Source: a virus
Direction: 5' to 3' (one strand)
DNA length: 51,354 nucleotides
IMG/VR virus record: IMGVR_UViG_3300048114_000266
Location: 1 to 51,354 of that record
Under the pieces are notes generated by a model that worked only from the letters and a program-made list of their open reading frames with translations, had not been told where the DNA came from and did no database searches. Both the position numbers and the translations under genes were made by a program. This document shows positions 1-51,354 of the stretch, one piece after another; within the stretch, counting starts at the first letter, position 1, and each line of letters starts with the position of its first letter.

Positions 1-583
1 CCGCTTTCAGTTTCCCCCATGCGATTGCACCGACGATTAGGCCGGCCCCGATTATCGGCCACCCGACGGCGGCGATTATCAGCCCGGCGGTAATCGTCCC
101 CCATTTCAGCGCGCCCAAGACGTCGCCGCCCATGATTTTCCCGAACGTGATTGCTCCCGTGATTGCCGCCGCGCCGATTACGGGCCATTTGATAGCCGAC
201 ATGATTGCGCCGGCCGATATGCCGCCGCTTACCAGCCCACCGATACCGCCCGAAAGTAGACTTCCCAAGCCGCCGGATAGGATACCGCCGGCCGCCGCGC
301 CACCGCCAAGCCCCAACAGCCCGCCGAACTTCCCGGCGATACCTCCTAATGTGCTACGTAGAATCGTAAAGCGTTCGTCGGCGTTTTCGGCTTCTTCGGC
401 CGCTTCTTCGGCTTGGTCGGCCGTTTGGCCCATTTCGTCGCCAAGTTCGCCGACTTGCGACCCCGCCGACCGTGCCGTTTGACCAAGTCCCGAATATGAT
501 TCGTCAAGTTGGCCGACTTGGGCACGGGATTCTTCGACGCCCGTAACCTTCGCTTGGTATTCGATAGTGCCGATTTGAACCAT
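1..583 (-). CDS. Tape-measure-like tail protein, N-terminal segment; the gene crosses the contig junction and continues at 51354..50419
   Basis: ATG at 583-581 with an in-frame stop just upstream (611-613). Frame stays open to position 1 and is in phase with ORF 50419..51345 when the 127-bp terminal overlap is collapsed. Translation begins MVQIGTIEYQAKVTGVEESRAQVGQLDE, then Gly-rich hydrophobic repeats. Sits directly downstream of the G/GT chaperone pair. Confidence 0.55.
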   Translation of the reverse strand, partial: MVQIGTIEYQAKVTGVEESRAQVGQLDESYSGLGQTARSAGSQVGELGDEMGQTADQAEEAAEEAENADERFTILRSTLGGIAGKFGGLLGLGGGAAAGGILSGGLGSLLSGGIGGLVSGGISAGAIMSAIKWPVIGAAAITGAITFGKIMGGDVLGALKWGTITAGLIIAAVGWPIIGAGLIVGAIAWGKLKA

Positions 584-2743: not shown

Positions 2744-3310
2744 ATGACCGAAACCCAATTCGACGACACGACCCGAACCGACCTTACGAACGCCGACGTC
2801 GCGACCGACGACACGGTGCGCGTCGTTTGCATGAACCCGGAAACCGGCGAAGAATTCGACGTCACGGGCGACGTCGCCACGACCTACGCCGACCACAAGT
2901 TCGCCGTCGAAGGCGACGACGGCGTCGTCGTTATCCTGAACGACGACACGAAGGAGGTTCGCGAAGGGTCGTTCGCTGACGGCTTCGACACCGTCGAAGG
3001 CTTCCGCCCGGTCTTCGTGGAATTCGCGACCGAAGGCGACCGCGAAAACGTCGACGCTGACGCCGACGACACGCTTGTCTACGATAACGTAGTTCACGGC
3101 GCGAACGAATCCACGGGCAAGGAATTCACGAAGACGAAGACGGTCGAACACACGGGCGAAGTCTACGCCGAAGACGGCGGCGTGACGGCGTTCCGCTCCC
3201 CGGACTTCGACGGCGTCTTCTTCGTCGACGACGGCGGTACGGTCGAATACGACCCCGCTGACGAAGCGCGCGACCGCTACGAAGTCGGGACGTCCGGCCG
3301 AATCGAATAG
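2744..3310 (+). CDS. Hypothetical acidic protein on the opposite strand, embedded in the structural operon
   Basis: ATG at 2744 (ORF track alternative start 2732) preceded by the conserved promoter-leader cassette in plus orientation; begins MTETQFDD. Confidence 0.55.
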   Translation: MTETQFDDTTRTDLTNADVATDDTVRVVCMNPETGEEFDVTGDVATTYADHKFAVEGDDGVVVILNDDTKEVREGSFADGFDTVEGFRPVFVEFATEGDRENVDADADDTLVYDNVVHGANESTGKEFTKTKTVEHTGEVYAEDGGVTAFRSPDFDGVFFVDDGGTVEYDPADEARDRYEVGTSGRIE

Positions 3311-3792: not shown

Positions 3793-4347
3793 TTACCCAC
3801 GCCCTTCTAATTCGAATACTTCTTGCCCGTTTTGCCGGACGATAACGAAGCCCGATTGCAGTAGCGTACCCCGGTCGGTCGCTTCGTCGGCGACAATATC
3901 TTGGGATTGTTCGAACGCGAATTCGACCGTGTCTTCGATTGCCTTCCGCGCGGCGTCGGGGTCGTTCGACCCTTCGTAGTTTTCAAGAAATTGCTCCCCG
4001 GCTTGTTTGGCCGCTTCGAACCCGCGATTCAAGAAGAAGACGCCGTCGGTCCCCGATTCGGCAATCGCCCCGACGACAATCCACGCGACATTACGCTGGG
4101 CTTCTTCGATAGTGTCGGCGTTTTCCTCCCCGGCCGCCCGAAGCCCAGCGTCAAGGTCGGCCCATTTCCGTTGTACCCACCCTAATAGCGGTTCGAACGG
4201 CGGCGACGTCCCCGTGTAGGACGTGGGGAATTCGACATATACCGCGTAGTCCGCGCCGTAGCCGACCGTCGCGTCGACGTCAAGATTTTCGAATACTTCG
4301 TCGATTTGCGACGAATCGACTTCGACGGTGACATTCGCGCCGACCAT
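3793..4347 (-). CDS. Hypothetical head-tail region protein
   Basis: ORF track 3793..4398 starts on GTG; first ATG is at 4347, 2 nt after the upstream gene's stop. Confidence 0.5.
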   Translation of the reverse strand: MVGANVTVEVDSSQIDEVFENLDVDATVGYGADYAVYVEFPTSYTGTSPPFEPLLGWVQRKWADLDAGLRAAGEENADTIEEAQRNVAWIVVGAIAESGTDGVFFLNRGFEAAKQAGEQFLENYEGSNDPDAARKAIEDTVEFAFEQSQDIVADEATDRGTLLQSGFVIVRQNGQEVFELEGRG

Positions 4348-8780: not shown

Positions 8781-11528
8781 TTACGTCAAGTGATTAACGT
8801 GGGTGTCGTAGCGGTCTATCCAATCGTATAGCGTGTTTGGCGACACCTTGCCCCGTTCTTCGACGTCGTATTCGTCGGCTTCGACTAACCGCCGATTGAA
8901 TTCCCGAAGCGCGCCCCGCTTCGAACCCGATTCTTCTAAGCATTCACGTAGGAGGTTCGGAACGTGATTGCCCAAGACGTCTTCTAATTCCTGCATACGC
9001 CGCGTGGGGTTCGTCGCCTTCGCGACGCGCTTGACGACGTCCGCATACGTTTCGTCGTGGGCCTTCGACGCTTCGACGGGTTCGACGTTCGCGTCGCCGG
9101 CTTCGAATTGGTCCGCGAAGTCGTCGGCCGACGGCACGTCGACGTCCGGCGCGTCGTCGCCGGTCCCCGGAACCCGCACGAACGTATGCCGTTCGTTCGG
9201 GTGAATCGTATGCTTGCGGAACGATAGGTTATCGAAGTATTCGTCGTGAACGTTCCGTTCAGCGTCGATTAGTTCGGGGAGCGTGACCGGCGTCCCGCCG
9301 TGGTCCGGGTTCGTCATGTCTTTCAGGTCTTCGCACGCGTCGGTCGTGCGACTGTCGTCGGGACCGACCCATTTGAACTTCGCGTCGTCAAGCCCACGGT
9401 CGCGATAGCCTTCTTCGCGCGCTTCGTTCAGTACCTTAGCCGATTCGGTGCGCGCTATCGTTTCCAAGTCGTCGGGGTCCGCACGGGGGAGCGCGTCGCT
9501 AAGATTGTCGACGATTGAATCTAACGACCACCCTTGCGGGTTCGTCAGCGCGTCGCTAAGCGTGTCTTGAATCGTAGTAGCCACACGTCCCGGCACCGAC
9601 GCGAAGTCGCTGAACACGGCCCCACGGTCGACGACGTCTTCTAACGCGGACATGACGAAGTCGGGGACGTCTTCGTCTTCGGCCCACGCCCGCTTTTCTA
9701 TGTCGTCAAGCGACTTCGGGGCTATCTGTCGGTCGAACGCCCGCAACAGCGTCGTGTCTAACTTCGCGACTTCGTCTTTCGTCAGTCGGTCGCGGTCGCC
9801 GTCCCCGTCACTCCCGTTTCCCGAATCACCCTTCGTCGTGGGGCCTTGTTCGACGGCGTCGAAGTCTATGTCGTCGAAGTTAACGCCGTCGTATTTGTCG
9901 ATAAGGTCTTGCACCGTTCCGGGGCCGACGCCGAAGACTTCCGCATGTGGGTCGTGGGTTTCCGGCGGGTTCGGCGGGTAAACGACGTCGCCGCCGTCAG
10001 TATTCCGCGCCCGTTTCACGTCGAAGACGACGCCGCCTTCGTCGGCAAGGTCGTCTAAGAAGCGTTCGAAGTCGCCCGATTCGTGGTCTACCGCTTCCCC
10101 GCCGACGTGATAGGTAAGCGGGACGCCACCCTTCGAACGGTCGACGCGAATGTCGGCTTCGTCGGGGTCGTCGACCGACCCGAATAGGCCACCGCCGCCA
10201 CCGCCACCGCCGACGTCGCCTTCTTCGATTGGTCCGTCTTCGACCACTAACTTGCCGTCGCGGAAGGTGACGTCGCGGCCGGCGTTGGCCATTTCCTTCC
10301 CGGCGGTCGCTTGCGCTTCGATAACGTCGGCGCGCGTCTGACGTTCGTCGGCGGTTTGCTCCCGTTCGAATTCGAAGGCAAGGTCGTCGCTAATTTCGGG
10401 CCACACGTATGCCCGGTTAAGGGCTTCTTCTAATTGGCGAAGGGTGACGCGGAAACCGCGCTGTTTGTATGCTCCTTGCTGGGATTCGTCGGTGGCGCGA
10501 TTGACGTTTTCGAAGTCGAAACCCGCATACGACGGGTTAACCTTGAAGACCGACCCCAAGACCGTGACCCAATACTTCGAACGGTCAAGAATTTGTAGTT
10601 CCTGATAATTGTGATTTATCGCTTCGAAGTTTACGGGCGTCTTCGAATAGCCGACGCGGTGGCGTTCCCCTTCGTCCAAGCGCATGGATTCGACGAAGGT
10701 TTCCCAATCTTCGTCGTTCGGTAGTCCGCCGTAATCGTCTAAGGCTTCCGGGGAAAGGACACCGGGCGGGCCGCCTTGCATTAGGTCTAACCGCTCCTTT
10801 TCTGCAAGTTCTTCTAACAATTCGACTTCGTTTTGGGCCTTTTCTAAGGGGCCTTGCCCATAAAATCGGTCGGGGCGCGACGACCATTCGACCCACACAA
10901 TATCGTTAACGTCGAATTCGTCGGTCTTCTTCCCCTTGCTTTGCGACACTTGCACGAAGCCTTCGGTAATCCCGTGCCGGTCGACTTGCTTGAATAGCGA
11001 CGCGCTGTCGACCGGGACAAGTTCGGCGACTTCGTCACTATCTTCGTAGTAGTGCTTGACAAGCGTCGCGTCGCCCAATTCCAACAGTACCCGCGTCGTC
11101 GCTTCAAGCATGTCGCGGAACGACGCTTGCGCGGGCGGCAATTGCCGCATGTGCCTTTCGACCTTCGCTAAGGCTTCGTCGGAAATGTCGGCGTCTTCGT
11201 CGCGGGGTTTAATCGACCAATTCGCGGCGGCGACGTCTTGCGATAGCGTGTCGATATAGGCTTGCACGACGGCGTTCGCGGATATGTCGCGCAAGAAGAC
11301 GGGGTCGTAGGGCTTCGTCTTGGCGTTACCCTGAACGGCGTCGCGAACGTCGTCGTTTACGTTCACGCGCCGGTTAATATCACCTCCCTTTTCCGCTGTT
11401 TCCGGGGAATTGTACCGCTTGCGGCGTCGTGACCGGACCCGCTGACGGCGTTCGCGACCGCTACGGGCGTCGCCGCCGTCCGCGAAGGGTGACGTAATCC
11501 CCTTGACAAATTTACTAAGGCGCGACAT
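8781..11528 (-). CDS. Portal protein fused to a MuF/SPP1-gp7-like head morphogenesis domain
   Basis: ORF track, 915 aa, ATG at 11528. C-terminal half carries IARTESAKV, WVGPDDSRTTDACEDL and HPNERHTF; a Gly8 tract (around 10186-10215) separates the halves. Confidence 0.6.
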   Translation of the reverse strand: MSRLSKFVKGITSPFADGGDARSGRERRQRVRSRRRKRYNSPETAEKGGDINRRVNVNDDVRDAVQGNAKTKPYDPVFLRDISANAVVQAYIDTLSQDVAAANWSIKPRDEDADISDEALAKVERHMRQLPPAQASFRDMLEATTRVLLELGDATLVKHYYEDSDEVAELVPVDSASLFKQVDRHGITEGFVQVSQSKGKKTDEFDVNDIVWVEWSSRPDRFYGQGPLEKAQNEVELLEELAEKERLDLMQGGPPGVLSPEALDDYGGLPNDEDWETFVESMRLDEGERHRVGYSKTPVNFEAINHNYQELQILDRSKYWVTVLGSVFKVNPSYAGFDFENVNRATDESQQGAYKQRGFRVTLRQLEEALNRAYVWPEISDDLAFEFEREQTADERQTRADVIEAQATAGKEMANAGRDVTFRDGKLVVEDGPIEEGDVGGGGGGGGLFGSVDDPDEADIRVDRSKGGVPLTYHVGGEAVDHESGDFERFLDDLADEGGVVFDVKRARNTDGGDVVYPPNPPETHDPHAEVFGVGPGTVQDLIDKYDGVNFDDIDFDAVEQGPTTKGDSGNGSDGDGDRDRLTKDEVAKLDTTLLRAFDRQIAPKSLDDIEKRAWAEDEDVPDFVMSALEDVVDRGAVFSDFASVPGRVATTIQDTLSDALTNPQGWSLDSIVDNLSDALPRADPDDLETIARTESAKVLNEAREEGYRDRGLDDAKFKWVGPDDSRTTDACEDLKDMTNPDHGGTPVTLPELIDAERNVHDEYFDNLSFRKHTIHPNERHTFVRVPGTGDDAPDVDVPSADDFADQFEAGDANVEPVEASKAHDETYADVVKRVAKATNPTRRMQELEDVLGNHVPNLLRECLEESGSKRGALREFNRRLVEADEYDVEERGKVSPNTLYDWIDRYDTHVNHLT

Positions 11529-34356: not shown

Positions 34357-34574
34357 TTGTACGGGCCGAATTCTTCGTCGCCGTGTTCGTCTTCGAAGAC
34401 GCCGATAGCGTATAGGGCCAAAGCCCCGACCCCAGCGACCGATAGCCCGCCGACCGCTACGCCGGCCCACATGCCGGCCACGCGCATGGCTAAGCCCGAC
34501 GCCCCAGCGACGAATGCCACGACACCCGCGACAGCGATAGCGGCCACGGGGACGGCTATGTGCTTGGTATTCAT
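34353..34574 (-). CDS. Small membrane protein
   Basis: ORF track, 73 aa, two hydrophobic helices. Confidence 0.45.
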   Translation of the reverse strand: MNTKHIAVPVAAIAVAGVVAFVAGASGLAMRVAGMWAGVAVGGLSVAGVGALALYAIGVFEDEHGDEEFGPYK

Positions 34575-35377
34575 GTGTTCGTGTCTAACAAGGGCGCTTG
34601 CATGAATTTAGTGTTCACCCGGCCGTCGTCGCGTTCGGTAAAGACGTGGTACGGGTTCCCGTGGCCGGTGACGAACCGCACGTAGTCTTCGCTGATTGCG
34701 TCGACAATATTCGGCATGTATTTGTTCGACATGCGGGCTTCGGTGAACGATTCGGGCGGGTCTTGAAGCCATTCGAAGCCGTCGTCGTCGTGTAGTTTCA
34801 CGCGGGCGCTGTCGTTATCGCCCTTGCCTTCAAGGACGAACGTACCGACGTCGTCGTCAGACGCGACGAAGTTCCCTTGCCCGCTCCCCGCGCCGGATAG
34901 TTCCGCGACGTCGGTCCCACGGTCCCACCGTTCGACGGGAATGGTCACGAAGACGTTATACCCGTGTTCGTCTTTGACCGGCGGGACGTCGACCGGCGAC
35001 CCCTTGACGCTGTCGGGGTCGACACCCGACATTTCGTATTCGACGCCGTCGGCCTTGAAGTCTAAACTGTAATTATCCCAATTGTAATCTAACTGAACGA
35101 CGTCGGCGTTTTTCGCGATACCAAGCAATTCGTCTAACTTGCCGGTGTCGACGCCAATCGCGAAGGTGTCTTCGACTTCGTAGTGTTCGAAGTCGGTCGC
35201 GTCGACGGCTTGCCGCGACAGCGCCACGTTCGCCGCGTCTTTCTTGCGAACGCGAAGGCGGTCGGGTTCGAATTCGAACACGGCTTCTAAGTCGGGCGAC
35301 ACGGCGTCGACGCCTTCGGTAATCGTTTCCCAAATGCTTGCGTCGGCAATCGTTTCGACAGTAGGTTCGTTTGTCAT
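34571..35377 (-). CDS. pcna: PCNA-like sliding clamp
   Basis: ORF track, 268 aa. The segment RLRVRKKDAANVALSRQAVDATDFEHYEVE...FAIGVDTGKLDELLGIAKNADVVQL follows the pattern I recall for haloarchaeal PCNA N-terminal domains; alignment done by eye only. Confidence 0.55.
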   Translation of the reverse strand: MTNEPTVETIADASIWETITEGVDAVSPDLEAVFEFEPDRLRVRKKDAANVALSRQAVDATDFEHYEVEDTFAIGVDTGKLDELLGIAKNADVVQLDYNWDNYSLDFKADGVEYEMSGVDPDSVKGSPVDVPPVKDEHGYNVFVTIPVERWDRGTDVAELSGAGSGQGNFVASDDDVGTFVLEGKGDNDSARVKLHDDDGFEWLQDPPESFTEARMSNKYMPNIVDAISEDYVRFVTGHGNPYHVFTERDDGRVNTKFMQAPLLDTNT

Positions 35378-35438: not shown

Positions 35439-35521
35439 TGCGACGGGCCGGATTCGAACCGGCGAACCCCTACGGGACACGGTCTTAAGCCGTGCGCGTT
35501 TGGCCACTTTGCTACCGTCGC
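35439..35521 (-). tRNA. tRNA-Leu, anticodon UAA
   Basis: Hand fold of GCGACGGTAGCAAAGTGGCCAAACGCGCACGGCTTAAGACCGTGTCCCGTAGGGGTTCGCCGGTTCGAATCCGGCCCGTCGCA: 7-bp acceptor stem, anticodon stem CACGG/CCGTG with loop CTTAAGA, long variable arm, T-arm GCCGG-TTCGAAT-CCGGC. The D-stem is weak. Confidence 0.7.
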
Positions 35522-39420: not shown

Positions 39421-39441
39421 CGGGTTAGGTATTGCCTGATT

Positions 39442-39458
39442 GGTATATTAGCGACATA
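39442..39458 (+). promoter_or_regulatory. BRE/TATA-like promoter of the TFB-like gene
   Basis: cgacatac-TTTTATG about 35 nt upstream of ATG 39489. Confidence 0.45.
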
Positions 39459-39488
39459 CTTTTATGCCGGTCGGCGGTACGTGTCGGT

Positions 39489-40538
39489 ATGGAAACGGAA
39501 CCAGATACCGACGCGACCGACCGGATTCGTTCGATTGCCGAACGGGTCGGGTTCGACGACAGTATCGGCGACTTGGCTACCCAAGTGTTCACGAACGCCG
39601 TCGAAGAAGGCGTCGTCACCGCCGTCGTCGACCGCGACGAAAGCGGTCGCTTCGAAGGTGAAACGCGGAACTACCCGGCGGCCGCATACCCGGCGGCCGT
39701 GTATGCCGCCGCGCGGATTCGTGACATTCCGACCAAGCCGTCCGAAGTCGCTGACGCGGCCGACGTCGACGCTGACGTCGACGCTGTCGGTGACTATTAC
39801 AAGGACATGCTTGGGGCGCTACCCTACACCGTCGAACCGGAAGACCCGGTCGATTGGGTGCGCCGGCTTTGCGACGACTTGGACGTGTCCCCCGGCTTCG
39901 AAACCGACGCCGTCGACTTGTGCGGCGACGCTGTCGGTGCGAACCTGCATAACGGCAAGGCCGTGTCCGGGTTCGCCGCCGCCGTCGTCTACGCGACGTC
40001 GGAATATCGCGACGCTGACGTCGGGCAAGACCGTATCGCCGAAGTCGCCGACGTGTCGCCCGTGACGATTCGGAACCAGTACCGCGACGTCTTGGAATTG
40101 TGGGAACGGGCGGCCGAACCGGGCGACCCCGACGTGATTCGGGCCGCCGTTAACGACGTGTGTGACCGTATCGACGGGCTTCCCTCCCGCGTGCGGGCCG
40201 ACGTCGCCGACCTTGCCGCCGACGCTATCGACGCCGACGCCGACTTCGTCAGTAACACCGACCCCGACGGCGTGGCGGCCGGTATCGTCTACGTGGCGGC
40301 GAAAGACGCCCGCGTCGACGTCAGTCAAACCGAAGTCGCTGACGTCGCGGGCGTGTCGAAGTCGACCGTCGTGAACCGGGTAAACGACGTCCGCGATTGG
40401 CGGCGTCGGAAGGACTTCGAAGCGAAGGAATACAATACGCTAAAGCAAATCGCGGCCGACCACGGCGTCGACGTCGGGCAACAGCCCGAACGCCCCTATC
40501 TTATCGACCGCTTAGTCGAAGCGGGTGTCGACGCATGA
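39489..40538 (+). CDS. TFB/TFIIB-core-like transcription factor with no N-terminal zinc ribbon
   Basis: First ATG of ORF track 39432..40538. SGFAAAVVYATSEYRDADVGQDRIAEVADVSPVTIRNQYRDVLEL closely follows the pattern I recall for the second cyclin repeat and HTH of archaeal TFB; two further similar modules are present. The N-terminus has no Cys pairs. Confidence 0.6.
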   Translation: METEPDTDATDRIRSIAERVGFDDSIGDLATQVFTNAVEEGVVTAVVDRDESGRFEGETRNYPAAAYPAAVYAAARIRDIPTKPSEVADAADVDADVDAVGDYYKDMLGALPYTVEPEDPVDWVRRLCDDLDVSPGFETDAVDLCGDAVGANLHNGKAVSGFAAAVVYATSEYRDADVGQDRIAEVADVSPVTIRNQYRDVLELWERAAEPGDPDVIRAAVNDVCDRIDGLPSRVRADVADLAADAIDADADFVSNTDPDGVAAGIVYVAAKDARVDVSQTEVADVAGVSKSTVVNRVNDVRDWRRRKDFEAKEYNTLKQIAADHGVDVGQQPERPYLIDRLVEAGVDA

Positions 40539-40945
40539 ACGGCAAGAAGCGCGTCGAAGTCGAATTTATCGACCCCGACGAAGGCGGGTTTAGCATGACG
40601 TCGGGGGCGTCGCCGTCGGCGGCCGAATATGACACGGTGTCCGTCGAATTCGAATTGCACGAACTTGAACGGGTCCGCGACCGTGTCTTCGACGTAATAG
40701 CCGCCGCCCATTCGGATAACAAGCGTGTCGCTGGGGTCGTCGTCGGCGTTCGCGAATACCTTCGGCTATACGCGCTTATCAGTCACGAAATGGGCGACAC
40801 GTCAGCCCCAGCGACGAAGGCGCACGTCGAAGACCTAATCGGGCGTCCCGTGACGGTCGTCGGCGGGTCGACCGTCAGCGTCGAATACGAAGACGACGAC
40901 GGGCGTCTTGCCGAACACGTCTTCGAAATGGGTGGTCGCGAATGA
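40535..40945 (+). CDS. Hypothetical protein
   Basis: Internal ATG at 40535 of ORF track 40397..40945; ATGA overlap with the TFB-like gene stop. Confidence 0.5.
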   Translation: MNGKKRVEVEFIDPDEGGFSMTSGASPSAAEYDTVSVEFELHELERVRDRVFDVIAAAHSDNKRVAGVVVGVREYLRLYALISHEMGDTSAPATKAHVEDLIGRPVTVVGGSTVSVEYEDDDGRLAEHVFEMGGRE

Positions 40946-41217
40946 CCGACATGCCGCCCATGCCGACGGCTACCGAAGCGGTGACTATCGAAGTCGACGA
41001 CCCGACCGACCCCGAAGCGTATGCGCGTGCCGCGTACCGGGCGCAAGCGTCGGCCATGATTACCGAAATGATGTATGGCCATTCCGCGATAACTGTCGAC
41101 GACGACGGTATTCACGTCGCTGTCGGCGTCGAAAGCCTTCCGGGGACCGACACCGACACCTACGGGAAAGCACCGATTGAAGCCATTCGGGAGCAAAGGG
41201 GTGAATCGAATGACTGA
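40942..41217 (+). CDS. Small hypothetical protein
   Basis: ORF track, 91 aa; ATGA overlap. Confidence 0.45.
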   Translation: MTDMPPMPTATEAVTIEVDDPTDPEAYARAAYRAQASAMITEMMYGHSAITVDDDGIHVAVGVESLPGTDTDTYGKAPIEAIREQRGESND

Positions 41218-41878
41218 CGAAGACGATATTCCGACGGTCGACGTCGACGACCTTCCCGAAGGCGCGTTAGACAATATCGACGTCGCGACAGTCGGGGACA
41301 CCGACCGCTTCCCGCCCGACATGTCCGTCGAAGACTTCAGCGACCCGAATGAATCGCTTGTTCGGTCGTTCGACGACGATATTGCCAAGGCGGTTCAGTC
41401 CGCCGTGTGGCATACGATTGTCGACGGCGCGGGGCACGAAGCCTTCGTCGACGACCTAACGGCCGAATCCATGCGCGACGCTATCGAACGGCTTCAGTCG
41501 AACGGCTTCGCGACCGAACGACTGTCGGCGACCGACGTTTGGGGAGAAAGTGACGGCCGGCCGTCGGGCGCGGCGTTTTTCATGGGTGACGACGTCGCTG
41601 ACGACTTCGAAGACGTCGTCGACGAATGGGTGCGAATCGACGACGGTGACGACGCCGACGACTTTGACCGTGTGAAGTTCGACGGCTACCTTGCCGAACG
41701 GGTCGAAGACGGACTTCCGTCGCACCTTGTCGTCTTGGTCGACGTCGACGCAATCGCCCGCGTGCCGCCCCACGCCCGTCACGTTCCGGTCGGATTGGAT
41801 ACGACCCCCAGCGTATCCTCCCCGATTGTCGTCGCCCAAGAAGACGGTATCGCCGTGATTAACGTCGCCCAACAGTAG
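41210..41878 (+). CDS. Hypothetical acidic protein
   Basis: Internal ATG at 41210 of ORF track 41177..41878; begins MTDEDDIP. Confidence 0.5.
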   Translation: MTDEDDIPTVDVDDLPEGALDNIDVATVGDTDRFPPDMSVEDFSDPNESLVRSFDDDIAKAVQSAVWHTIVDGAGHEAFVDDLTAESMRDAIERLQSNGFATERLSATDVWGESDGRPSGAAFFMGDDVADDFEDVVDEWVRIDDGDDADDFDRVKFDGYLAERVEDGLPSHLVVLVDVDAIARVPPHARHVPVGLDTTPSVSSPIVVAQEDGIAVINVAQQ

Positions 41879-41892
41879 CGTAAGCGAACCCT

Positions 41893-42309
41893 ATGACAGC
41901 ACTACAAGACTTTGCGGAATGGTTCAAGGCGCGGGAAACGAAAATCGAAGCGTGGTATAGCGACGGCGTCGGCCGCTTCGCGTTCCGCGTGACCGTCGAC
42001 GGCCAAGCGTTCGTATGTGCGGCCCGGTCGTCGCCACCGAAGGACGGGAAGACGTCGATAATGGCCCGTGTCGCGGGGAAGGCGCAAACGTCAGACGCGC
42101 TTATCGCCCTTCGATTGCCGGGCGGGATTCGTGTCTTCGACCCGGTGACGGTCTTGGATACCGGGGAGCGTGACACGCCCGCCCAATCCGACCGTCGCGA
42201 ACGCGACGAATCATGGGTCGCGGTCGACCTATCCGTCGCTTGCACGTTCAGCGAATGGTACGACGGTGACGCGAAGCCGCTTCGGTTCGCCGACGTCACC
42301 GAAGCCTAA
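41893..42309 (+). CDS. Hypothetical protein
   Basis: ORF track, 138 aa; a short gcgaaccct leader precedes the ATG. Confidence 0.5.
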   Translation: MTALQDFAEWFKARETKIEAWYSDGVGRFAFRVTVDGQAFVCAARSSPPKDGKTSIMARVAGKAQTSDALIALRLPGGIRVFDPVTVLDTGERDTPAQSDRRERDESWVAVDLSVACTFSEWYDGDAKPLRFADVTEA

Positions 42310-42338
42310 GATTCGCGAACGCCGGGAAAGATTCAGTC

Positions 42339-42351
42339 CTTTTTGTTTTTT
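42339..42351 (+). terminator. Oligo-T tract, candidate archaeal transcription terminator
   Basis: ccTTTTTgTTTTTTc about 30 nt downstream of the stop of 41893..42309. Confidence 0.45.
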
Positions 42352-42431
42352 CACGCTGACGACGTAGGAGTATGACGGGGTCGTAGCCACCGGCTAACGA
42401 CCCCGTTAGTGTAGGTCTAAGCGTTTGTGTT

Positions 42432-42485
42432 GTTACTACTACACTACACTACACTACTACTAACTAACACTATACTACTACACGA
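42432..42485. repeat. AT-rich low-complexity ACTAC pentanucleotide tract
   Basis: ttactactacactacactacactactactaactaacactatactactacac, immediately upstream of the promoter of the 42535 gene. Confidence 0.7.
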
Positions 42486-42493
42486 CCACTTAA

Positions 42494-42506
42494 CCGACAC
42501 TTATTT
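42494..42506 (+). promoter_or_regulatory. BRE/TATA-like promoter of the regulator gene
   Basis: ccgacac-TTATTT about 30 nt upstream of ATG 42535. Confidence 0.5.
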
Positions 42507-42534
42507 GCAGTTAGTGGTCTTTTGGTGGTCTTGC

Positions 42535-43191
42535 ATGTCGAAAGACGGTTTGGTGCGACTTCCCCGAATCAGCGAATCGCTCCGTGACGAATTCCGCGAC
42601 GACGTCGAAGACCGCTTCGGAACGGTACGCGGTCACTACCGTTCGGAAGTCGAAAAAGCCCTTCGTGAATACCTGAACGGGTCGCACGGCGGGGATACTG
42701 ACGACCGCCTTCGCCGGTTAGAAAACGCGGTCGAACGTATCGACGAACGAACCGCCGCCCTACACGCTGACGAATCGGGAAAAAACAAAAAGGATTCAGA
42801 CGTTTCCCCCACGACCCAAAATCGGATTGAATCAATCCGTGACCGTGTCGAACGCGAATCGGGAACCGGCCCCGTTCACGAAGCGGTCGTGCGGCAAGCA
42901 ATCGAAGACGTCGCCGGCCATAGTGACCCGACCATTCGGCGGTACATGCAAATGCTTACCGATAGGGAAATACTGTATCCCCACCCGAACCGCGACACGA
43001 AGTTCGTTTACGGGGAAGAAGAATATGCGTGCATGATTCAAAGCATGGCCGAATCGGGAGCAATCACCGAAAGCGAATATTGGGACGTCGTCACCGGCAT
43101 GGGCGGCGAAAACGACTTCCGCAATATCTTGGAACGCGCCGGCTACGACGACGGCGGTGACGACAAGCCCGCCGGTCGAACCTTTCAGTAG
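42535..43191 (+). CDS. Putative DNA-binding regulator (N-terminal RHH-like, C-terminal winged-helix-like)
   Basis: Internal ATG at 42535 of ORF track 42427..43191. N-terminus LVRLPRISESLRDEFRDDVEDRFG fits a strand-helix-helix pattern; C-terminus HEAVVRQAIEDVAGHSDPTIRRYMQMLTDREILYP fits a winged helix. Confidence 0.5.
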   Translation: MSKDGLVRLPRISESLRDEFRDDVEDRFGTVRGHYRSEVEKALREYLNGSHGGDTDDRLRRLENAVERIDERTAALHADESGKNKKDSDVSPTTQNRIESIRDRVERESGTGPVHEAVVRQAIEDVAGHSDPTIRRYMQMLTDREILYPHPNRDTKFVYGEEEYACMIQSMAESGAITESEYWDVVTGMGGENDFRNILERAGYDDGGDDKPAGRTFQ

Positions 43192-43228
43192 CGACACGCA
43201 CTTGCCGACCGTTCCCGTTAGTTAGGCC

Positions 43229-43729
43229 ATGTCTTCCGCGAAGGGCGATAGGTGGGAACGGCATTACGTGAACGCGCTTAGTGCCGACGACCCCGACGAC
43301 GATAGCGACGACGTCGAACGGGTCGGTATCGACGACTTCGCGTTAGTCGAACCGTTCACGGCGTTACGCCTTCCCGCTTCCGGCGCGGGGCGTTCCGCCG
43401 ACCTTCCCGACATTCATGCGTGGCTTTGCCCCGACGCCCATACAGTCCGACAGTACGCCGCCGAATCGAAGGCGGGGGCCGACCGGGTGTATTTGGATAA
43501 CGACGAAGTAGACGCGCTTGTGCGCTACGCTGACGACACGGGGGCGACGCCGGTCGTGTTCGTTCATATCGACCACGAACACGCACATGACGACTTAGGC
43601 GGCGATTACGTCGTCGCTATTGACGAACTACATTCGACAGCGTCGGGCTACACGTTCACGAAGACCCGCGACGCCCCGACAGCCCGGACGTTCGCCGAAT
43701 GGGTCGACGACCCCCAATCGGTCGCTTAG
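43229..43729 (+). CDS. hjc: Holliday junction resolvase (Hjc-like)
   Basis: ORF track, 166 aa. GDRWERHYVNAL ... LRLPASGAGRS ... PDIHAW ... AAESKAG ... VYLDNDEVDALVRYADDTGATPVVFVHI follows the pattern I recall for archaeal Hjc (G.xFER ... SGS ... PD ... E.K ... Y ... P..AV). Confidence 0.55.
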   Translation: MSSAKGDRWERHYVNALSADDPDDDSDDVERVGIDDFALVEPFTALRLPASGAGRSADLPDIHAWLCPDAHTVRQYAAESKAGADRVYLDNDEVDALVRYADDTGATPVVFVHIDHEHAHDDLGGDYVVAIDELHSTASGYTFTKTRDAPTARTFAEWVDDPQSVA

Positions 43730-44160
43730 TCGCCACGGTCGCGGTCGCTTCGTCCCTCCCGATACAGGTTCGGCCGGTCAAGGTCGACCCCAAGTTCTTC
43801 GGCGATTGCCGCTTGGTTAGAAATAGACACTTCTTGGCGGCGTTCCATTTTCCGAACGTCGCCGTGTATGTCTTCGACTTCGTCGCGAAGGTCGGCGTGC
43901 ATTTCTTCGAATTCTTCGCGTAGTTCCGTGTTCGCTTCGTCAAGGCGGTCGAACCGACTTTCTGAATCGGCAAGGTGGCCGTCCGACGTCGGGTCGTCTT
44001 CGTCGCCGAAGACGCGCCGATACACCGGGACCGCGAAGGTAAAGTGCCGTCTGACTAACCACGCCACGACGACCACAAGGCCGCCTAAGACGAACGTCAC
44101 CGCCCAAAGCCCCAGCGACGACGGCGCAATCGGGCCGACTTGCAGTAGTGTCGACGTCAT
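43726..44160 (-). CDS. Membrane-anchored coiled-coil protein, last gene of the tail operon
   Basis: ORF track, 144 aa; N-terminal hydrophobic helix, then charged helical region. Confidence 0.5.
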   Translation of the reverse strand: MTSTLLQVGPIAPSSLGLWAVTFVLGGLVVVVAWLVRRHFTFAVPVYRRVFGDEDDPTSDGHLADSESRFDRLDEANTELREEFEEMHADLRDEVEDIHGDVRKMERRQEVSISNQAAIAEELGVDLDRPNLYREGRSDRDRGD

Positions 44161-44164
44161 AGTA

Positions 44165-46261
44165 TCACCTCCCCGTCCGGCCTTCGACAGTAGTTTCGAC
44201 CATATGCCCCGACGAATCCGTATTGTCGACGATTACGCCGACCGATTGTTCGCCACCCGTCGAATTCGTGTAGGAGGCAAGCGGCGACCCGGTTTCGTCG
44301 TCGAAGACGGTAGACCCGTCGCCCGACAGTATCGTCGATTGGGTCGTGTAGCCGCCCGAATTGTCGAACGTGACAAGTTCGACGTTCACGCCCGTCGGCA
44401 TGGCTTGGGCTAACCCGGTCGTCAGCGTCGCTTTGTCTATTTCCATAGTTTCGCCGTCGGCTAAACTATCGACCACGACGACGGCTTGCGTCGTGTTCCC
44501 GACGTTCCGCGACAGCGACCCCGACACGCGGTCGTGTGGTCGGCTAAGTTCCGGTCTTTGAATGGTTCCCGCCGCGTCGACTAAGGTAGACCCCGTGATA
44601 GTATCTAACCGTTCGTGCAAGACGGCACGCCGGTAGTTTACGCCACCCGACCCGTCGGCTTCCCCACGAAGGCTTAGGATAGTGCCGCCGCCGACTGAAT
44701 ACGATTGGCCATATTCCCGCCCGGCGTCCGCACTTCCGTCGACCGGGGCCGAAATGGTCGTGTTCCCCCACGAACGATTTGCCGGGAATGCGACCGCCGC
44801 GCCCCCTTTTGGAATGAACGACCCGAACGTTTCGAAGTCGGAAGTAGAATCTATATTTCCGTATAGTGTAAGCAGTCCGTCGACCCGAAAGTCGGTAGTG
44901 ACGCGACTGCCGCCACCCGTGTTCGGGTGGTCGCCCGTTACGTAAATCCCCGACTGTGGCGAAAATCCGACCGGAACCGCGACGTCTTTCGAAGACAGTC
45001 CACCCGACCCGTCAGCGTACCCCAAAATCGAAAGGAATGGTTGGCCGGCCACGCCGAACGAATACGACACTTCGTCGCCCGAATTTTCGATTCCTGAAAG
45101 GGGGTGGTCGAACGAACTTCCCCGGAAGGATACGTCACCGCCGACGATAAGTTCGCTGAACACGCGGACGTATTCGCGTTGCACGCCGCCCGAACCGTCG
45201 GCGTCGACGGCGGCCCACAATTGCGAAGACCCACCCGCCGAAAGGCCCACGCCGACGGCGGAACCCGCCGACGCATTCGAATCGACCGGGGCTTCGGCAA
45301 GGGAATTTCCGGGCGTTCTGTTTGCGGGGAACGATATGGCCGCCCCACCCTTCGGGATAAATGCCCCGAACGTTTTGAAATCCCCATTAATATCTATATT
45401 ATCGTAAGATGATATTGCCCCATTTACTTGAAGCGACCCCGTGAATTGGTTATCGGCGGAGGCTTCGCTATTTGACCCGGTGACATACATCCCTCCGCCC
45501 CCGTGTATTTGGCCGTATATGTCGACGCTACCAGATATTTGGTTATCCGCTTGTGCGTCGGGGTGCGACCCGGTTACAAGAAGCCCGCTGTCGTATGTCG
45601 TCGGCTTAGCGAATTGCACTTCGCCGTTTTGGATACCTCCCGACCCGTCCGATTCGGTGTAGATTTTCGCGAATTCTTCGCCGTCGACCGCGAACGTGTA
45701 TGATACTTCCGTCCCGGCGGACGTGTTCGATTCGACTTGAATGTCGAATAACGGGCCGAATTGCGTCGTTCCCGGCGTCGCTTCGAACCCCGACGACAGT
45801 AGTGCCGAAGCCGCCGGGTGCGCCCGCCAATTGTGAATATCGCCTTCGGTGACGTCGCCGGCCGCGTGGGGGACCGCTACAAGAGCCAACAGTAGCCCGT
45901 CCGACGGCGTTTCGGGAGGTTCGGGGTTCGGGGCCGGCGTACCTTCCGCGACGGCGTAGGTGCCCGCACTACTGTCGAAATACACCAAGTCGACGCGACG
46001 GTCGTCTTGGCCCGACGTCGTCGTTTGCGGCCCGGTCGACAGCGTGAACGACGTCGACGACGGGGAGTAGGTAGCACTATCATACGACAAGTTCGTCGCG
46101 GCGGCTACCTGAATCCCCATAGCGGTATTGGGGTCGGGCGTCACTTGCGCGTCGCCGTTGTTTTGGATACCATTACCGACGAACGCTTCGGTAATCGCTT
46201 CTAAATATCGGCCGAAGAAGGTTCCCCCTTGTGGGGCTTCGAACGGTTCGGCTTCGGGCAT
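44165..46261 (-). CDS. Tail fibre or receptor-binding-like protein with internal repeats
   Basis: ORF track, 698 aa; duplicated block DFKTFGAFIPKGGAAISFPANR / DFETFGSFIPKGGAAVAFPANR; Gly/Ser/Thr-rich. Confidence 0.6.
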   Translation of the reverse strand: MPEAEPFEAPQGGTFFGRYLEAITEAFVGNGIQNNGDAQVTPDPNTAMGIQVAAATNLSYDSATYSPSSTSFTLSTGPQTTTSGQDDRRVDLVYFDSSAGTYAVAEGTPAPNPEPPETPSDGLLLALVAVPHAAGDVTEGDIHNWRAHPAASALLSSGFEATPGTTQFGPLFDIQVESNTSAGTEVSYTFAVDGEEFAKIYTESDGSGGIQNGEVQFAKPTTYDSGLLVTGSHPDAQADNQISGSVDIYGQIHGGGGMYVTGSNSEASADNQFTGSLQVNGAISSYDNIDINGDFKTFGAFIPKGGAAISFPANRTPGNSLAEAPVDSNASAGSAVGVGLSAGGSSQLWAAVDADGSGGVQREYVRVFSELIVGGDVSFRGSSFDHPLSGIENSGDEVSYSFGVAGQPFLSILGYADGSGGLSSKDVAVPVGFSPQSGIYVTGDHPNTGGGSRVTTDFRVDGLLTLYGNIDSTSDFETFGSFIPKGGAAVAFPANRSWGNTTISAPVDGSADAGREYGQSYSVGGGTILSLRGEADGSGGVNYRRAVLHERLDTITGSTLVDAAGTIQRPELSRPHDRVSGSLSRNVGNTTQAVVVVDSLADGETMEIDKATLTTGLAQAMPTGVNVELVTFDNSGGYTTQSTILSGDGSTVFDDETGSPLASYTNSTGGEQSVGVIVDNTDSSGHMVETTVEGRTGR

Positions 46262-46294: not shown

Positions 46295-47353
46295 TTAGGG
46301 CGTGTAGTAGTCGGGGAACGCGCCCGGCGACCCCGGTATTGCAGAAATATCTACTCCCCTATATGTGAATTCTCCCGTGGTGTCACCAAACACCGAAAGC
46401 GACCCGTCTTGGGGCAAATAGGCGAACCCGTATCGGTACGTATTCCCTGAAATATATTGGACGTATGCGAAGAAGGTTCTACCGTATGGTGTCGGCGTCG
46501 AAAACCCACCTATATTATTCAGGTCGACAGACGATATTAGTTCGCCGTTTGGCGAATATTTGTTCAATTCCCCGCGCCAATATGCCGTTACCACGCCACC
46601 AAACCCGACGCTGACGGTGTTTAGTGGAATGGGTGACTTTGACTTCGACCATTTGTGATTTAGGTCGGCGTCGAATGCGTGAACGTCGTCACTCCCGCCC
46701 ACAATTACATTCCCGTATGGCCCCACGTTCACACTATTTATGTGTTGGTCGGGAATTTTGTAATTCCCCAATAACGACCCACCATTCGAATCTATGTTTA
46801 CAATTTTGTCGCCGTTGCTATAATATATTGAATTGTCCGGGGTCGAATATCGAATATCACCTATACCCCTTGAACTATCATTACTATCAGATATTGACCA
46901 ATCCACGCCGCTACCGTCTTCGAAGACTCTCCCCACCCGGATGGGTGAATTTTGACCGCCCCACGCGATAAAGTAGACACCGCCCCCAATTCCGGCGGCA
47001 ATTGATTCAGCGTCAAGTACGGGACCGCTACCGAATTGCACGTCTTTCGACCAAATCACGGATAAATCTTCAGTTAATTTATATATGGTAGACGAAGACC
47101 TACCCGTGGCAAATACATGTCCTTGTGGGGTGGCGCGAATTTTATCGACCGGATTTTCTAATGTCGCTCCCGTATCTTGGACGCCGCCCGGTGAAAATTT
47201 GGCAATATTGTTCGGCGGGCTTGCGTTAATGCCGTCCCTATAAACCCCATAGACGGGCCAACTTGGTGGGTCCGGGTATCTTCGGATTGCGCCAAGATTG
47301 TAAAGCCGCTGTCGTTCCCGATAGTCACTAAGGTCGGATTGGGAAGCGGGCAT
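46295..47353 (-). CDS. Tail or baseplate-associated protein
   Basis: ORF track, 352 aa, ATG at 47353. Confidence 0.55.
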   Translation of the reverse strand: MPASQSDLSDYRERQRLYNLGAIRRYPDPPSWPVYGVYRDGINASPPNNIAKFSPGGVQDTGATLENPVDKIRATPQGHVFATGRSSSTIYKLTEDLSVIWSKDVQFGSGPVLDAESIAAGIGGGVYFIAWGGQNSPIRVGRVFEDGSGVDWSISDSNDSSRGIGDIRYSTPDNSIYYSNGDKIVNIDSNGGSLLGNYKIPDQHINSVNVGPYGNVIVGGSDDVHAFDADLNHKWSKSKSPIPLNTVSVGFGGVVTAYWRGELNKYSPNGELISSVDLNNIGGFSTPTPYGRTFFAYVQYISGNTYRYGFAYLPQDGSLSVFGDTTGEFTYRGVDISAIPGSPGAFPDYYTP

Positions 47354-50418: not shown

Positions 50419-51354
50419 CTAACGAACCCCCGCGCGGTCGTTAGTCTTGTCACCGACACGTTCCGCAATCTTGTCGGCAAGTTCTTCTAACGTCCGGCGG
50501 TCGACGTTCGTCGGGTCGAATTCGCCCGACAAGTCGATTGTAATGCCGTCGATTGCGACCGACGTCCCGCCGCCACCGCCGCCCGACGCGGCCGCACTAA
50601 CAAGCGGTTCGGGAATGACGGCTTCGCCCTTGTGAATTTGGGCGACGCCGTCGGATTCTACCATGCCGCCCGAAGCCATTCCCCGGACTTGTTCGCCCGC
50701 CCATTCACCAAGCCCGTGAATCGGGTTATTCGTCATTACGTTTTCTATCGTATTCGCCGCTCCGGGGTTATTTTCAGCGAATCGTGAACCCGCCCTTCGT
50801 GCCGGACCCCACCCGTCGCCACCGCCGGCTATTTCGGCAAGGATTTGGCCCGCCGTCAGCGTCGGCCATACGATTGCGCCGACTATCATACCGCCCGTGA
50901 TAGTCCCGAACCCGATTGCGGCGGCTATCAGCCCGCCCGTGACCGCGCCGAACGGTATCGACTTCAATAGTTGGCCGCCCGATATGACCTTGAACGACAT
51001 GGCCCCGACGACTAACGCCGCGCCGATTACGGGCCACCCCAGCGCGCCGACGATTATGCCGGCCCCAATCGTCGCCCACGACAGCGCGCCGACGACGTCG
51101 CCCGCTTTCAGTTTCCCCCATGCGATTGCACCGACGATTAGGCCGGCCCCGATTATCGGCCACCCGACGGCGGCGATTATCAGCCCGGCGGTAATCGTCC
51201 CCCATTTCAGCGCGCCCAAGACGTCGCCCGCTTTCAGTTTCCCCCATGCGATTGCACCGACGATTAGGCCGGCCCCGATTATCGGCCACCCGACGGCGGC
51301 GATTATCAGCCCGGCGGTAATCGTCCCCCATTTCAGCGCGCCCAAGACGTCGCC
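50419..51354 (-). CDS. Tape-measure-like tail protein, C-terminal segment (same gene as 1..583)
   Basis: ORF track 50419..51345; the TTG start there is an artefact of the window edge. Contains two identical 42-aa repeats plus one diverged copy, then a Gly-rich C-terminus. Confidence 0.55.
   Translation of the reverse strand, partial: GDVLGALKWGTITAGLIIAAVGWPIIGAGLIVGAIAWGKLKAGDVLGALKWGTITAGLIIAAVGWPIIGAGLIVGAIAWGKLKAGDVVGALSWATIGAGIIVGALGWPVIGAALVVGAMSFKVISGGQLLKSIPFGAVTGGLIAAAIGFGTITGGMIVGAIVWPTLTAGQILAEIAGGGDGWGPARRAGSRFAENNPGAANTIENVMTNNPIHGLGEWAGEQVRGMASGGMVESDGVAQIHKGEAVIPEPLVSAAASGGGGGGTSVAIDGITIDLSGEFDPTNVDRRTLEELADKIAERVGDKTNDRAGVR
51103..51354. repeat. Two perfect tandem copies of a 126-bp in-frame repeat inside the tape-measure-like gene; a further copy forms the window start (1-127)
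   Basis: The string gacgtcgcc-cgctttcag recurs at 51094, 51220 and 51346, giving a 126-bp period; encodes the 42-aa unit LGALKWGTITAGLIIAAVGWPIIGAGLIVGAIAWGKLKAGDV. Confidence 0.8.

Follow-up and report, generated by a model that had tools for sequence, protein, structure and literature searches.

A divergent Hjc-family gene, a putative RHH and winged-helix protein and an upstream G-free repeat tract in an uncultured haloarchaeal virus

The DNA considered here, in the following referred to as the window, is a stretch of 51,354 nucleotides (nt) that constitutes a whole metagenomic contig, the IMG/VR virus record IMGVR_UViG_3300048114_000266. It contains two adjacent genes on the plus strand, open reading frames A and B (ORF A and ORF B), that follow a control region composed of an oligo-T run, a GC-rich hairpin, a short-period repeat tract and an inverted repeat, and that converge on the tail genes of the virus (Table 1). 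Judged by its sequence, ORF B is a divergent virus-encoded member of the Hjc family of Holliday junction resolvases, and ORF A is predicted to join a ribbon-helix-helix (RHH) N-terminus to a winged helix. In a comparison with related loci, designated by L numbers, the tract was found to co-occur with the RHH-family regulator and not with Hjc.

Two genes between a control region and the tail module

Both reading frames belong to families of conserved homologues, comprising 16 sequences at 59-100% identity in the case of ORF B and 17 at 40-100% in the case of ORF A, and they are thus real genes rather than chance open reading frames of GC-rich DNA. The gap between them is 37 base pairs (bp) long and does not contain a T-run. 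At its distal end, the stop codon of ORF B overlaps by 4 bp with that of a convergent gene for a protein of 144 amino acids, both stops lying within the sequence TTAG at 43726-43729. This overlap is retained in nine of ten related loci, namely in L001 (at 3800-3803), L002 (6513-6516), L004, L006, L018-L021 and in the virus HHTV-2 (L022, 3836-3839). As it leaves no intergenic terminator, either mutual antisense read-through or termination within coding sequence would have to occur at this point. The convergent gene is followed by a baseplate gene and by further tail-fibre-like genes. Two elements of a preliminary description of this DNA, which had placed the gene pair behind an ACTAC tract and had it end convergently against the tail operon, are thereby borne out.

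Two other ways of reading the region were considered and rejected. A longer frame that starts with a GTG at 42427 and runs through the ACTAC tract is not regarded as coding, because all homologues start at the equivalent of position 42535; in addition, this frame is interrupted by in-frame stops between tract and ATG in L004 and by a stop at the 5' edge of the tract in L001. The minus-strand reading frames that overlap ORF A and ORF B were discarded since the conserved plus-strand proteins explain the region.

Table 1. Positions of the genes, protein regions and control elements at the locus. Nucleotide positions refer to the window, residue numbers to the encoded protein.
Feature	Position	Strand	Remarks
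TFB (TFIIB) homologue, virus-encoded	39432-40538	+	PF00382, 2.4e-24; first gene of the plus-strand block
Conserved gene, 138 amino acids	41893-42309	+	directly upstream of the control region; no family match found
Oligo-T run (TTTTTGTTTTTT)	42340-42351	+	after the stop of the 138-amino-acid gene; equivalent T-run in L001, L003, L004
GC-rich hairpin, arms ACGGGGTCGT and ACGACCCCGT, 12-nt loop	42375-42406	+	region folds with z = -3.5
G-free short-period repeat tract, 51 nt	42433-42483	+	ACTAC and TAC units, ~33% GC; only such run in the window
Inverted repeat ACCACTTAAC-N15-GTTAGTGGT	42485-42518	+	17-50 nt before the ATG of ORF A; candidate for an operator or for a hairpin in the leader
ORF A, 218 amino acids	42535 (ATG)-43191 (stop)	+	open reading frame and conserved homologues
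ORF A, putative RHH	residues ~5-50	+	
ORF A, coiled-coil helix	residues 55-78	+	
ORF A, Lys-rich disordered linker	residues 79-91	+	
ORF A, predicted winged helix	residues ~92-160	+	
ORF A, three-helix C-terminal subdomain	residues 161-202	+	followed by an acidic tail ending RTFQ
ORF B, 166 amino acids, Hjc family	43229 (ATG)-43729 (stop)	+	open reading frame and conserved homologues
ORF B, codon E10	43256-43258	+	catalytic
ORF B, codon D61	43409-43411	+	catalytic
ORF B, codon E79	43463-43465	+	catalytic
ORF B, codon K81	43469-43471	+	catalytic
Convergent gene, 144 amino acids	43726-44160	-	predicted N-terminal transmembrane helix, and coiled coil; only family match (phrog_6664) weak
Baseplate or tail-fibre protein, 698 amino acids	44165-46261	-	phrog_20556 'baseplate protein', 1.1e-68; end of the tail module

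The preliminary description had taken ORF B for an Hjc-like resolvase, and this identification is upheld at the level of family, fold and active site. In a hidden Markov model (HMM) search the protein scores 32.6 bits against the Pfam Hjc family PF01870, above the gathering cutoff of 21.1 (E 7.6e-8), and it matches PHROG 6591 (phrog_6591), annotated as 'Holliday junction resolvase', at 7.4e-11. Its alignment-based AlphaFold model, with a predicted local distance difference test score (pLDDT) of 86.7 and a predicted template modelling score (pTM) of 0.84, shows the PD-(D/E)xK alpha/beta fold in its Hjc variant. As evidenced by a Foldseek search of the PDB, the best 24 structural matches of this model are all Hjc or Hje proteins, from Archaeoglobus fulgidus, Sulfolobus and Pyrococcus, with a probability of 1.0, and the best of them is A. 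fulgidus Hjc (2wj0_A, E 1.3e-7, target-normalised TM 0.82).

The residues E10, D61, E79 and K81 do not vary among the 16 members of the family and are found as well in the homologues from L003 and L004. An hhalign profile-profile alignment with Hjc from Sulfolobus solfataricus (Sso Hjc) equates them with E12, D42, E55 and K57, so that a glutamate in helix 1, an aspartate that opens strand 2 and a Glu-x-Lys motif in strand 3 make up the tetrad. Note that simple HMM alignments shift the ExK motif by two residues, and that the equivalence given here is the one from the profile-profile alignment. The latter spans the protein from the N-terminal helix to residue ~107, and the correspondence farther towards the C-terminus was judged by visual comparison with Sso Hjc. 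With a family match above threshold and all four catalytic residues in place, the assignment to the Hjc family stands. Two features are distinctive of the viral protein, a well-ordered acidic insertion of 21 amino acids (residues 19-39) that forms a clade-specific helix-loop between helix 1 and strand 1, and a loop rich in His and Asp (residues 115-124) that is missing from some members of the family.

For ORF A, the same preliminary description had proposed a two-domain regulator of the RHH and winged-helix types that serves Hjc. Both domains are retained here, in the qualified form set out below, and the dedicated role is not. Residues 90-200 are modelled confidently (pLDDT ~85), and the three helices and the beta-hairpin wing of a winged helix are all present, identifying the C-terminal half as a winged helix on the level of the predicted fold. 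In the N-terminal part, the model has an unstructured segment in the place expected for the ribbon strand, which is followed by helices at residues 14-28 and 35-49 and then by a long helix at 55-78. The assignment of this part depends on the family rather than on the single protein: a profile made from 47 N-terminal sequences of the ORF A family matches PDB entry 2k6l (E 6.9e-5, 44/47 positions), which belongs to Pfam RHH_6 (E 2e-21) and which we take to be the RHH protein XACb0070 from Xanthomonas, although our literature search found nothing on 2K6L/XACb0070. The N-termini of some family members moreover match RHH_1, NikA-like (1e-6 to 4e-8) and RHH_5. Because the family profile provides this link to 2k6l, the N-terminus is probably an RHH domain at the profile level. 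The family is widespread, with 328 relatives of ORF A retrieved by a profile search among 1.84 billion cluster representatives; a pattern scan of IMG/VR for such relatives gave no confirmed loci, and a scan of metagenomes gave 7.

As a further observation on this protein, its relatives share a C-terminus (43135-43191, residues 201-218 in the window) in which an acidic stretch precedes a conserved [RK]-[GT]-F-[QA] motif, with F217 nearly invariant. Such an ending is reminiscent of the short motifs by which proteins dock to a partner, which might here be, for example, the viral PCNA or TFB.

The repeat tract and its surroundings in related loci

The control region between the 138-amino-acid gene and ORF A opens with an oligo-T run. 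Such runs are the termination signal of archaeal RNA polymerase, and this one is probably a terminator, which would set the ORF A unit apart from the genes headed by TFB. The hairpin that comes next has counterparts adjoining the tract in L002, L006 and L018-L021. In an alignment of six sequences, four of ten pairs are altered on both sides and 90% of the cells remain paired, values that together with a covariation score exceed those of all 500 shuffles and of slid controls, albeit in a small sample. An Rfam search of 42250-42600 returned no RNA family.

The tract itself is singular in the genome. It is the only run of at least 35 nt free of either G or C in the 51 kb, it contains the only cluster of ACTAC and it lies in one of the three 60-bp windows of lowest GC content. 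Tandem Repeats Finder (TRF) describes it with a period of 5 and 8 copies, and of the 10 occurrences of ACTACACTAC with at most one mismatch in the window, against 0.84 expected, five fall inside it. When all loci are considered for which the start of the RHH-family gene and the DNA upstream of it were available, 11 in total, a microsatellite-like tract without G on the sense strand is found 38-204 nt upstream of that gene in 11/11 cases, in either orientation and with ACTAC, TAC or TTAC as the repeat unit. In L012 and L013, where the gene starts are only estimated, a tract of the (CAA)n/CCA type lies just upstream. The association was strong enough to be predictive: the position of the tract alone indicated RHH genes at 1591-2385 in L018 and at 1026-1691 in L019, and the translations agreed. 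In the loci where the RHH gene lies on the minus strand, the tract is built as an inverted repeat with (TTAC)n as its arms, and one or two GC hairpins stand at its flank; these adjoin the tract in each such locus, at 5828-5880 in L002, at 1490-1545 in L006 and between tract and Hjc in L018-L021.

Between the tract and the start codon of ORF A lies the inverted repeat. Its arms are retained around a variable loop in L001, L004 and L011 (four loci including the window). At fewer than two mismatches the left arm matches nowhere else in the window, and a search of the genome for further ACTAC clusters or half-sites of the inverted repeat as targets in trans found none. A different element was noted in the leaders of the divergent type, where at least five direct copies of the hexamer GGAACC lie between tract and RHH start codon (~2390-2520 in L018, ~3320-3430 in L020). 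These copies are absent from leaders of the type found in the window, and they may constitute the site of a second regulator.

As to the relation of the two genes, the preliminary description had seen in them a compact switch-like module in which Hjc has a regulator of its own. This did not survive the comparison of loci. The conserved feature is the plus-strand block as such, in which the TFB gene, small genes including one for 133-142 amino acids and then Hjc converge on the tail genes. ORF A followed by Hjc, both on the plus strand, is the order in only three of 10 loci, the window, L001 and L003. In L004 a minus-strand gene of the helix-turn-helix (HTH) kind is inserted between the two, and in L018 and L019 a minus-strand RHH gene and a minus-strand HTH gene precede Hjc. 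L002, L006, L020 and L021 have a different RHH protein of 234-254 amino acids, encoded on the minus strand and divergent from Hjc, that shares with ORF A the RHH part and a DxLxRIE helix but differs in its C-terminus. The relatives of ORF A in the viruses HRTV-28 and HRTV-4 are genes within operons, and the regions examined around them contain no annotated Hjc; the Hjc of HHTV-2, at the same junction of modules, follows a protein in which no RHH-like sequence was seen on inspection. In related genomes, the position upstream of Hjc is thus held by different regulators in either orientation.

Within the genome studied here the two genes are nevertheless likely to be transcribed together, with Hjc under the control of the ORF A promoter, as the short gap is devoid of an oligo-T signal and as in L003 the stop of ORF A and the start of Hjc overlap in the sequence TAATG. 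From the sequences, this co-transcription is plausible for the present genome, but it is not a conserved design. In L001, an insertion of ~100 bp relative to the window was noted between ORF A and Hjc (3165-3302), flanked by a duplicated CCTTTCAGTAGC; it looks like a small insertion with target-site duplication.

The reading that we favour, with a probability of about 0.65 for the whole, is that of an Hjc-type resolvase next to a protein, ORF A, that acts on its own upstream region, with Hjc probably being co-transcribed. By analogy with the cellular and rudiviral enzymes, a dimer of ORF B would bind four-way or otherwise branched DNA and introduce paired nicks at an active site in which E10, D61 and E79, together with K81, hold a metal ion. 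Intermediates of replication or recombination would in this way be freed of their branches, allowing the terminase to package the genome. ORF A would dimerise through its N-terminal RHH and the coiled coil that follows, with the winged helix on a flexible basic linker as a second DNA-binding module. Its most likely role is to bind the region upstream of its own gene, at the ACTAC tract, at the ACCACTTAAC-N15-GTTAGTGGT repeat or at both, and so to set its own transcription, the tract being an autoregulatory operator or leader. We base this on the strict association of tract and RHH gene, on the tract being palindromic in loci of the divergent type and on the conserved inverted repeat. Hjc would then be a passenger on the ORF A transcription unit in this genome and inherit its control.

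Several observations weigh against this reading. No tract is present at HRTV-28 gp61 or HRTV-4 gp10, both of which lie inside operons, and the repeat unit changes among loci between ACTAC, TAC, TTAC and CAA, that is between periods of 3, 4 and 5, which is odd for an array of sequence-specific operators with fixed helical phasing. The N-terminal ~90 residues of ORF A are of low confidence in the monomer model (pLDDT about 50-60). An RHH domain folds only as an intertwined dimer in which the ribbon is formed, so that a poor monomer model is to be expected here. ORF A itself has no significant RHH or HTH match in Pfam, a direct Pfam scan of 8 N-terminal domains including that from the window gave no RHH match, and an hhalign comparison of the ORF A N-terminus with CopG was insignificant (E 0.15). 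Finally, with 27.8 bits ORF B stays far below the cutoff of 70 set for NF040854, the Hjc equivalog of NCBIfam. It is thus not an orthologue of cellular Hjc but the representative of a divergent viral subfamily, and its substrate preference could differ from that of the cellular enzyme.

Alternative functions can be envisaged for the upstream region. The stretch at 42340-42534 with hairpin, tract and inverted repeat might act in cis in replication, as an origin or as a site for termination and dimer resolution, to which ORF A binds as an initiator, accessory or partition-like protein and at which Hjc processes junctions. The cumulative GC skew of the circularised genome has its global maximum at 42432, one base before the tract, and a broad minimum at 20.5-27 kb, and the sign of the skew flips at the tract although the genes at 27-39 kb and at 44-51 kb are all on the minus strand. 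A local skew maximum is found within ~50-720 bp of the tract also in L001, L002, L018 and L019. The low GC content of the tract and the covarying hairpin stems would fit such an element, as would the fact that no initiator was recognised among the proteins scanned, and short direct repeats together with an inverted repeat before a winged-helix gene recall iteron plasmids. However, a tract with no G and ~17 C itself draws the skew maximum to its own edge, and as the skew forms a plateau at ~40.5-43.5 kb, the coincidence at 42432 is not base-precise evidence; the switch of the genes from plus to minus strand occurs at the same place. Moreover, there is no skew peak at the tract in L004, L006, L020 and L021, the units of 3-5 bp are much shorter than known iterons, and HRTV-28 and HRTV-4 possess the protein family without a region of this kind. 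Since both tract composition and strand switch bias the skew, we consider a replication element unlikely. A broader version, in which GC hairpin or hairpins, tract and RHH gene make up a cis/trans unit, previously undescribed, that is conserved in a clade of tailed viruses of haloarchaea and marks the origin or terminus of replication, with the RHH-winged-helix protein as initiator or organiser and the adjacent Hjc resolving junctions or dimers, is rather improbable. The tract could also be a mere promoter-proximal or 5'-leader element, an unstructured leader without G or a slippage-prone microsatellite that sets promoter spacing, which ORF A does not bind, regulating instead other viral or host promoters in trans. 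This would explain why the loci have in common a composition, with no G on the sense strand, low GC and units of varying period, rather than one word, and why window and L001 differ by insertions and deletions of whole units while a total length of 51 nt is maintained; in addition, the AACACTATAC at the 3' end of the tract, conserved in four loci, could be a TATA region. What makes it an unlikely explanation as well is that the tract accompanies the RHH gene even where the strand is flipped and the C-terminal domain is a different one, that the tract of the minus-strand type, an inverted repeat, has the typical form of a binding site for a dimer, and that the genome offers no other ACTAC cluster as a target in trans.

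The other two alternatives concern the function of the gene products. ORF A might after all be a dedicated switch for Hjc expression in a compact two-gene module, given that the window, L001 and L003 have the two genes side by side and probably in one transcript, and that a single intergenic region is common to the RHH gene and Hjc in L002, L006, L020 and L021. We regard this as very unlikely, as the pairing is conserved neither in gene type nor in orientation nor in adjacency, and as HRTV-28, HRTV-4 and HHTV-2 show either gene without the other in the regions considered. The partial protein scans revealed neither an integrase nor any other gene for lysogeny, and no relatives were retrieved when 185,579 reference genomes were searched, once for the Hjc family and once for that of ORF A; there is hence no sign of a lysis-lysogeny switch, and neither a provirus nor a host can be assigned. 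ORF B, for its part, might act in vivo not as a resolvase but as a PD-(D/E)xK nuclease that degrades host DNA, cleaves in a restriction-like manner or counters host defence. Its equivalog score, the acidic insertion and the variable His/Asp-rich loop would be compatible with such a function, type II restriction enzymes and the SPARDA nuclease are among its weaker fold matches, and a degradation of host DNA has been considered for viral Hjc (PMC7911831). Yet the top structural matches are Hjc and Hje proteins throughout, and the match to Hjc covers the core of the protein. There is furthermore no adjacent methyltransferase as a partner, PADLOC finds no matches to defence systems, and the position at the junction of modules is that of halovirus genes annotated as Hjc. 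A nuclease of this other type is thus highly improbable.

Genome setting

The window ends in an exact direct repeat of 127 bp (1-127 and 51228-51354), the usual signature of a circular assembly, and is thus taken to be a complete and probably circular genome of ~51.2 kb. A tandem repeat of 126 bp (51067-51354, 2.3 copies, 96% match) is located in a minus-strand gene at the end of the contig, and because it overlaps the terminal repeat, part of it may be an assembly artefact. Proteins identical to those encoded here are recorded from a JGI contig of 51,354 bp. The genome has a GC content of ~61% and encodes acidic proteins. Tail tube, prohead protease, a fusion of portal and MuF and the large terminase were recognised among its structural genes; the fusion, of a kind that is uncommon, is a protein of 915 amino acids (8781-11528, minus strand) with a portal domain (PF04860) and a Mu-F-like head-morphogenesis domain (PF04233). 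Baseplate and tail-fibre proteins are ~34% identical to those of the Haloarcula siphoviruses HVTV-1, HCTV-5, HCTV-2 and HHTV-2, and this relationship identifies the source as an uncultured tailed virus of haloarchaea. The virus is represented only in hypersaline metagenomes, and searches of the region by blastn and by protein comparison at default thresholds against 50,697 phage records gave no match.

Nearly all genes are on the minus strand. The sole plus-strand block extends from 39432 to 43729 and is opened by the gene for TFB and closed by ORF A and ORF B. A TFB gene likewise heads the equivalent block in L001-L004, L018 and L020, while in L021 it lies on the opposite strand, and a TFB encoded by the virus itself points to a redirection of host transcription. 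The place of the 138-amino-acid gene is taken by genes of 133-142 amino acids in L001-L004, L018 and L020. Beyond Hjc, the convergent gene contains a tandem repeat of 33 bp (43853-43920, 2.1 copies, 82% match), as a result of which an acidic coiled-coil segment is repeated in the 144-amino-acid protein. In Pfam and PHROG scans of ~30 other proteins a replication module was not recognised apart from a PCNA homologue (34571-35377, minus strand, PF00705, 1e-4), and the majority of the other large proteins at 19-39 kb had no match in Pfam or PHROG. A gene for tRNA-Leu(TAA) is found at 35439-35521 on the minus strand. Pockets of very low GC content (28-33%) occur at 45373-45432, 46777-46836 and 47033-47092, inside the tail-fibre and baseplate genes, and these may be host-recognition modules that were exchanged recently.

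Comparison with known systems

The archaeal Hjc enzymes of S. solfataricus, Pyrococcus furiosus and A. fulgidus (PDB 1hh1, 1gef, 2wcw) share with the ORF B model the same fold and an E-D-E-K tetrad in the same elements of secondary structure, and the PASG loop that precedes the catalytic aspartate is also conserved. They differ in that ORF B is virus-encoded, falls below the equivalog cutoff and is only ~16-24% identical to them; its acidic insertion is absent from both Sulfolobus Hjc and the Hjc of HHTV-2. The rudiviruses SIRV1 and SIRV2 have an Hjc-type resolvase that is thought to resolve replication intermediates. A weak tblastn match of ORF B to the resolvase of Sulfolobales Mexican rudivirus (E ~3) is not significant, and the rudiviruses are unrelated, linear and rod-shaped viruses with hairpin ends. 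The closest relatives of ORF B from cultured viruses were recovered by a relaxed tblastn search and are the Hjc of HHTV-2 (gp66), with 35% identity over 58% of the length (E 5e-5), and that of Hardycor1 (HrrHc1_175), with E 0.02. The former corresponds to ORF B also in its position as the last gene of a block that converges on tail-fibre genes, and the protein encoded upstream of it is unrelated to ORF A. An Hjc has been reported in Hardycor1, along with its genomic placement, and in HCTV-2, and a role in debranching before packaging was named there (PMC7911831, through the citations of which the rudiviral enzymes can also be traced). As Hjc was thus already known in HHTV-2, HCTV-2 and Hardycor1, the main contribution of ORF B is a divergent subfamily, marked by an acidic insertion, and a conserved placement beside the tail module. 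Both halovirus Hjc and the RHH or winged HTH regulators of archaeal viruses are known kinds of proteins, and the resolvase part of the preliminary description is correct without being new.

Full-length homologues of ORF A exist in HRTV-28 (gp61, 41% identity, E 5e-29) and HRTV-4 (gp10, 26% identity, E 6e-6), both annotated as hypothetical, and the top match of ORF A by fold in the BFVD is to this HRTV-28 gp61/HRTV-4 gp10 group at 1.8e-9. Their setting differs in that both genes lie within operons of small early genes. The present analysis provides an assignment of domains, a probable RHH and a winged helix, for this widespread and hitherto unannotated family of halovirus proteins, and it reveals a conserved, genome-unique tract without G that, with adjoining covarying hairpins, accompanies the RHH gene in this clade. 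The fused architecture of RHH, coiled coil and winged helix and the cassette of hairpin, tract and RHH gene were not found in the literature searched, and we consider them modestly novel. Should the tract prove to be an operator or a replication element, it would be a rare case of an experimentally tractable cis-regulatory site in this group of archaeal viruses.

The omega repressor of pSM19035, which recognises heptads of 7 bp, and MetJ, which recognises metboxes of 8 bp, are RHH factors with operators built as repeat arrays. ORF A is similar to them in its putative N-terminal beta-alpha-alpha domain, for which the family profile matches an RHH protein, and in an array of short repeats, direct or inverted, upstream of its own gene. 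It differs from them in that the candidate operator units of its family are only 3-5 bp long and variable in period among relatives, and in that the predicted protein adds to the putative RHH domain a coiled coil, a winged helix and a C-terminal helical subdomain.

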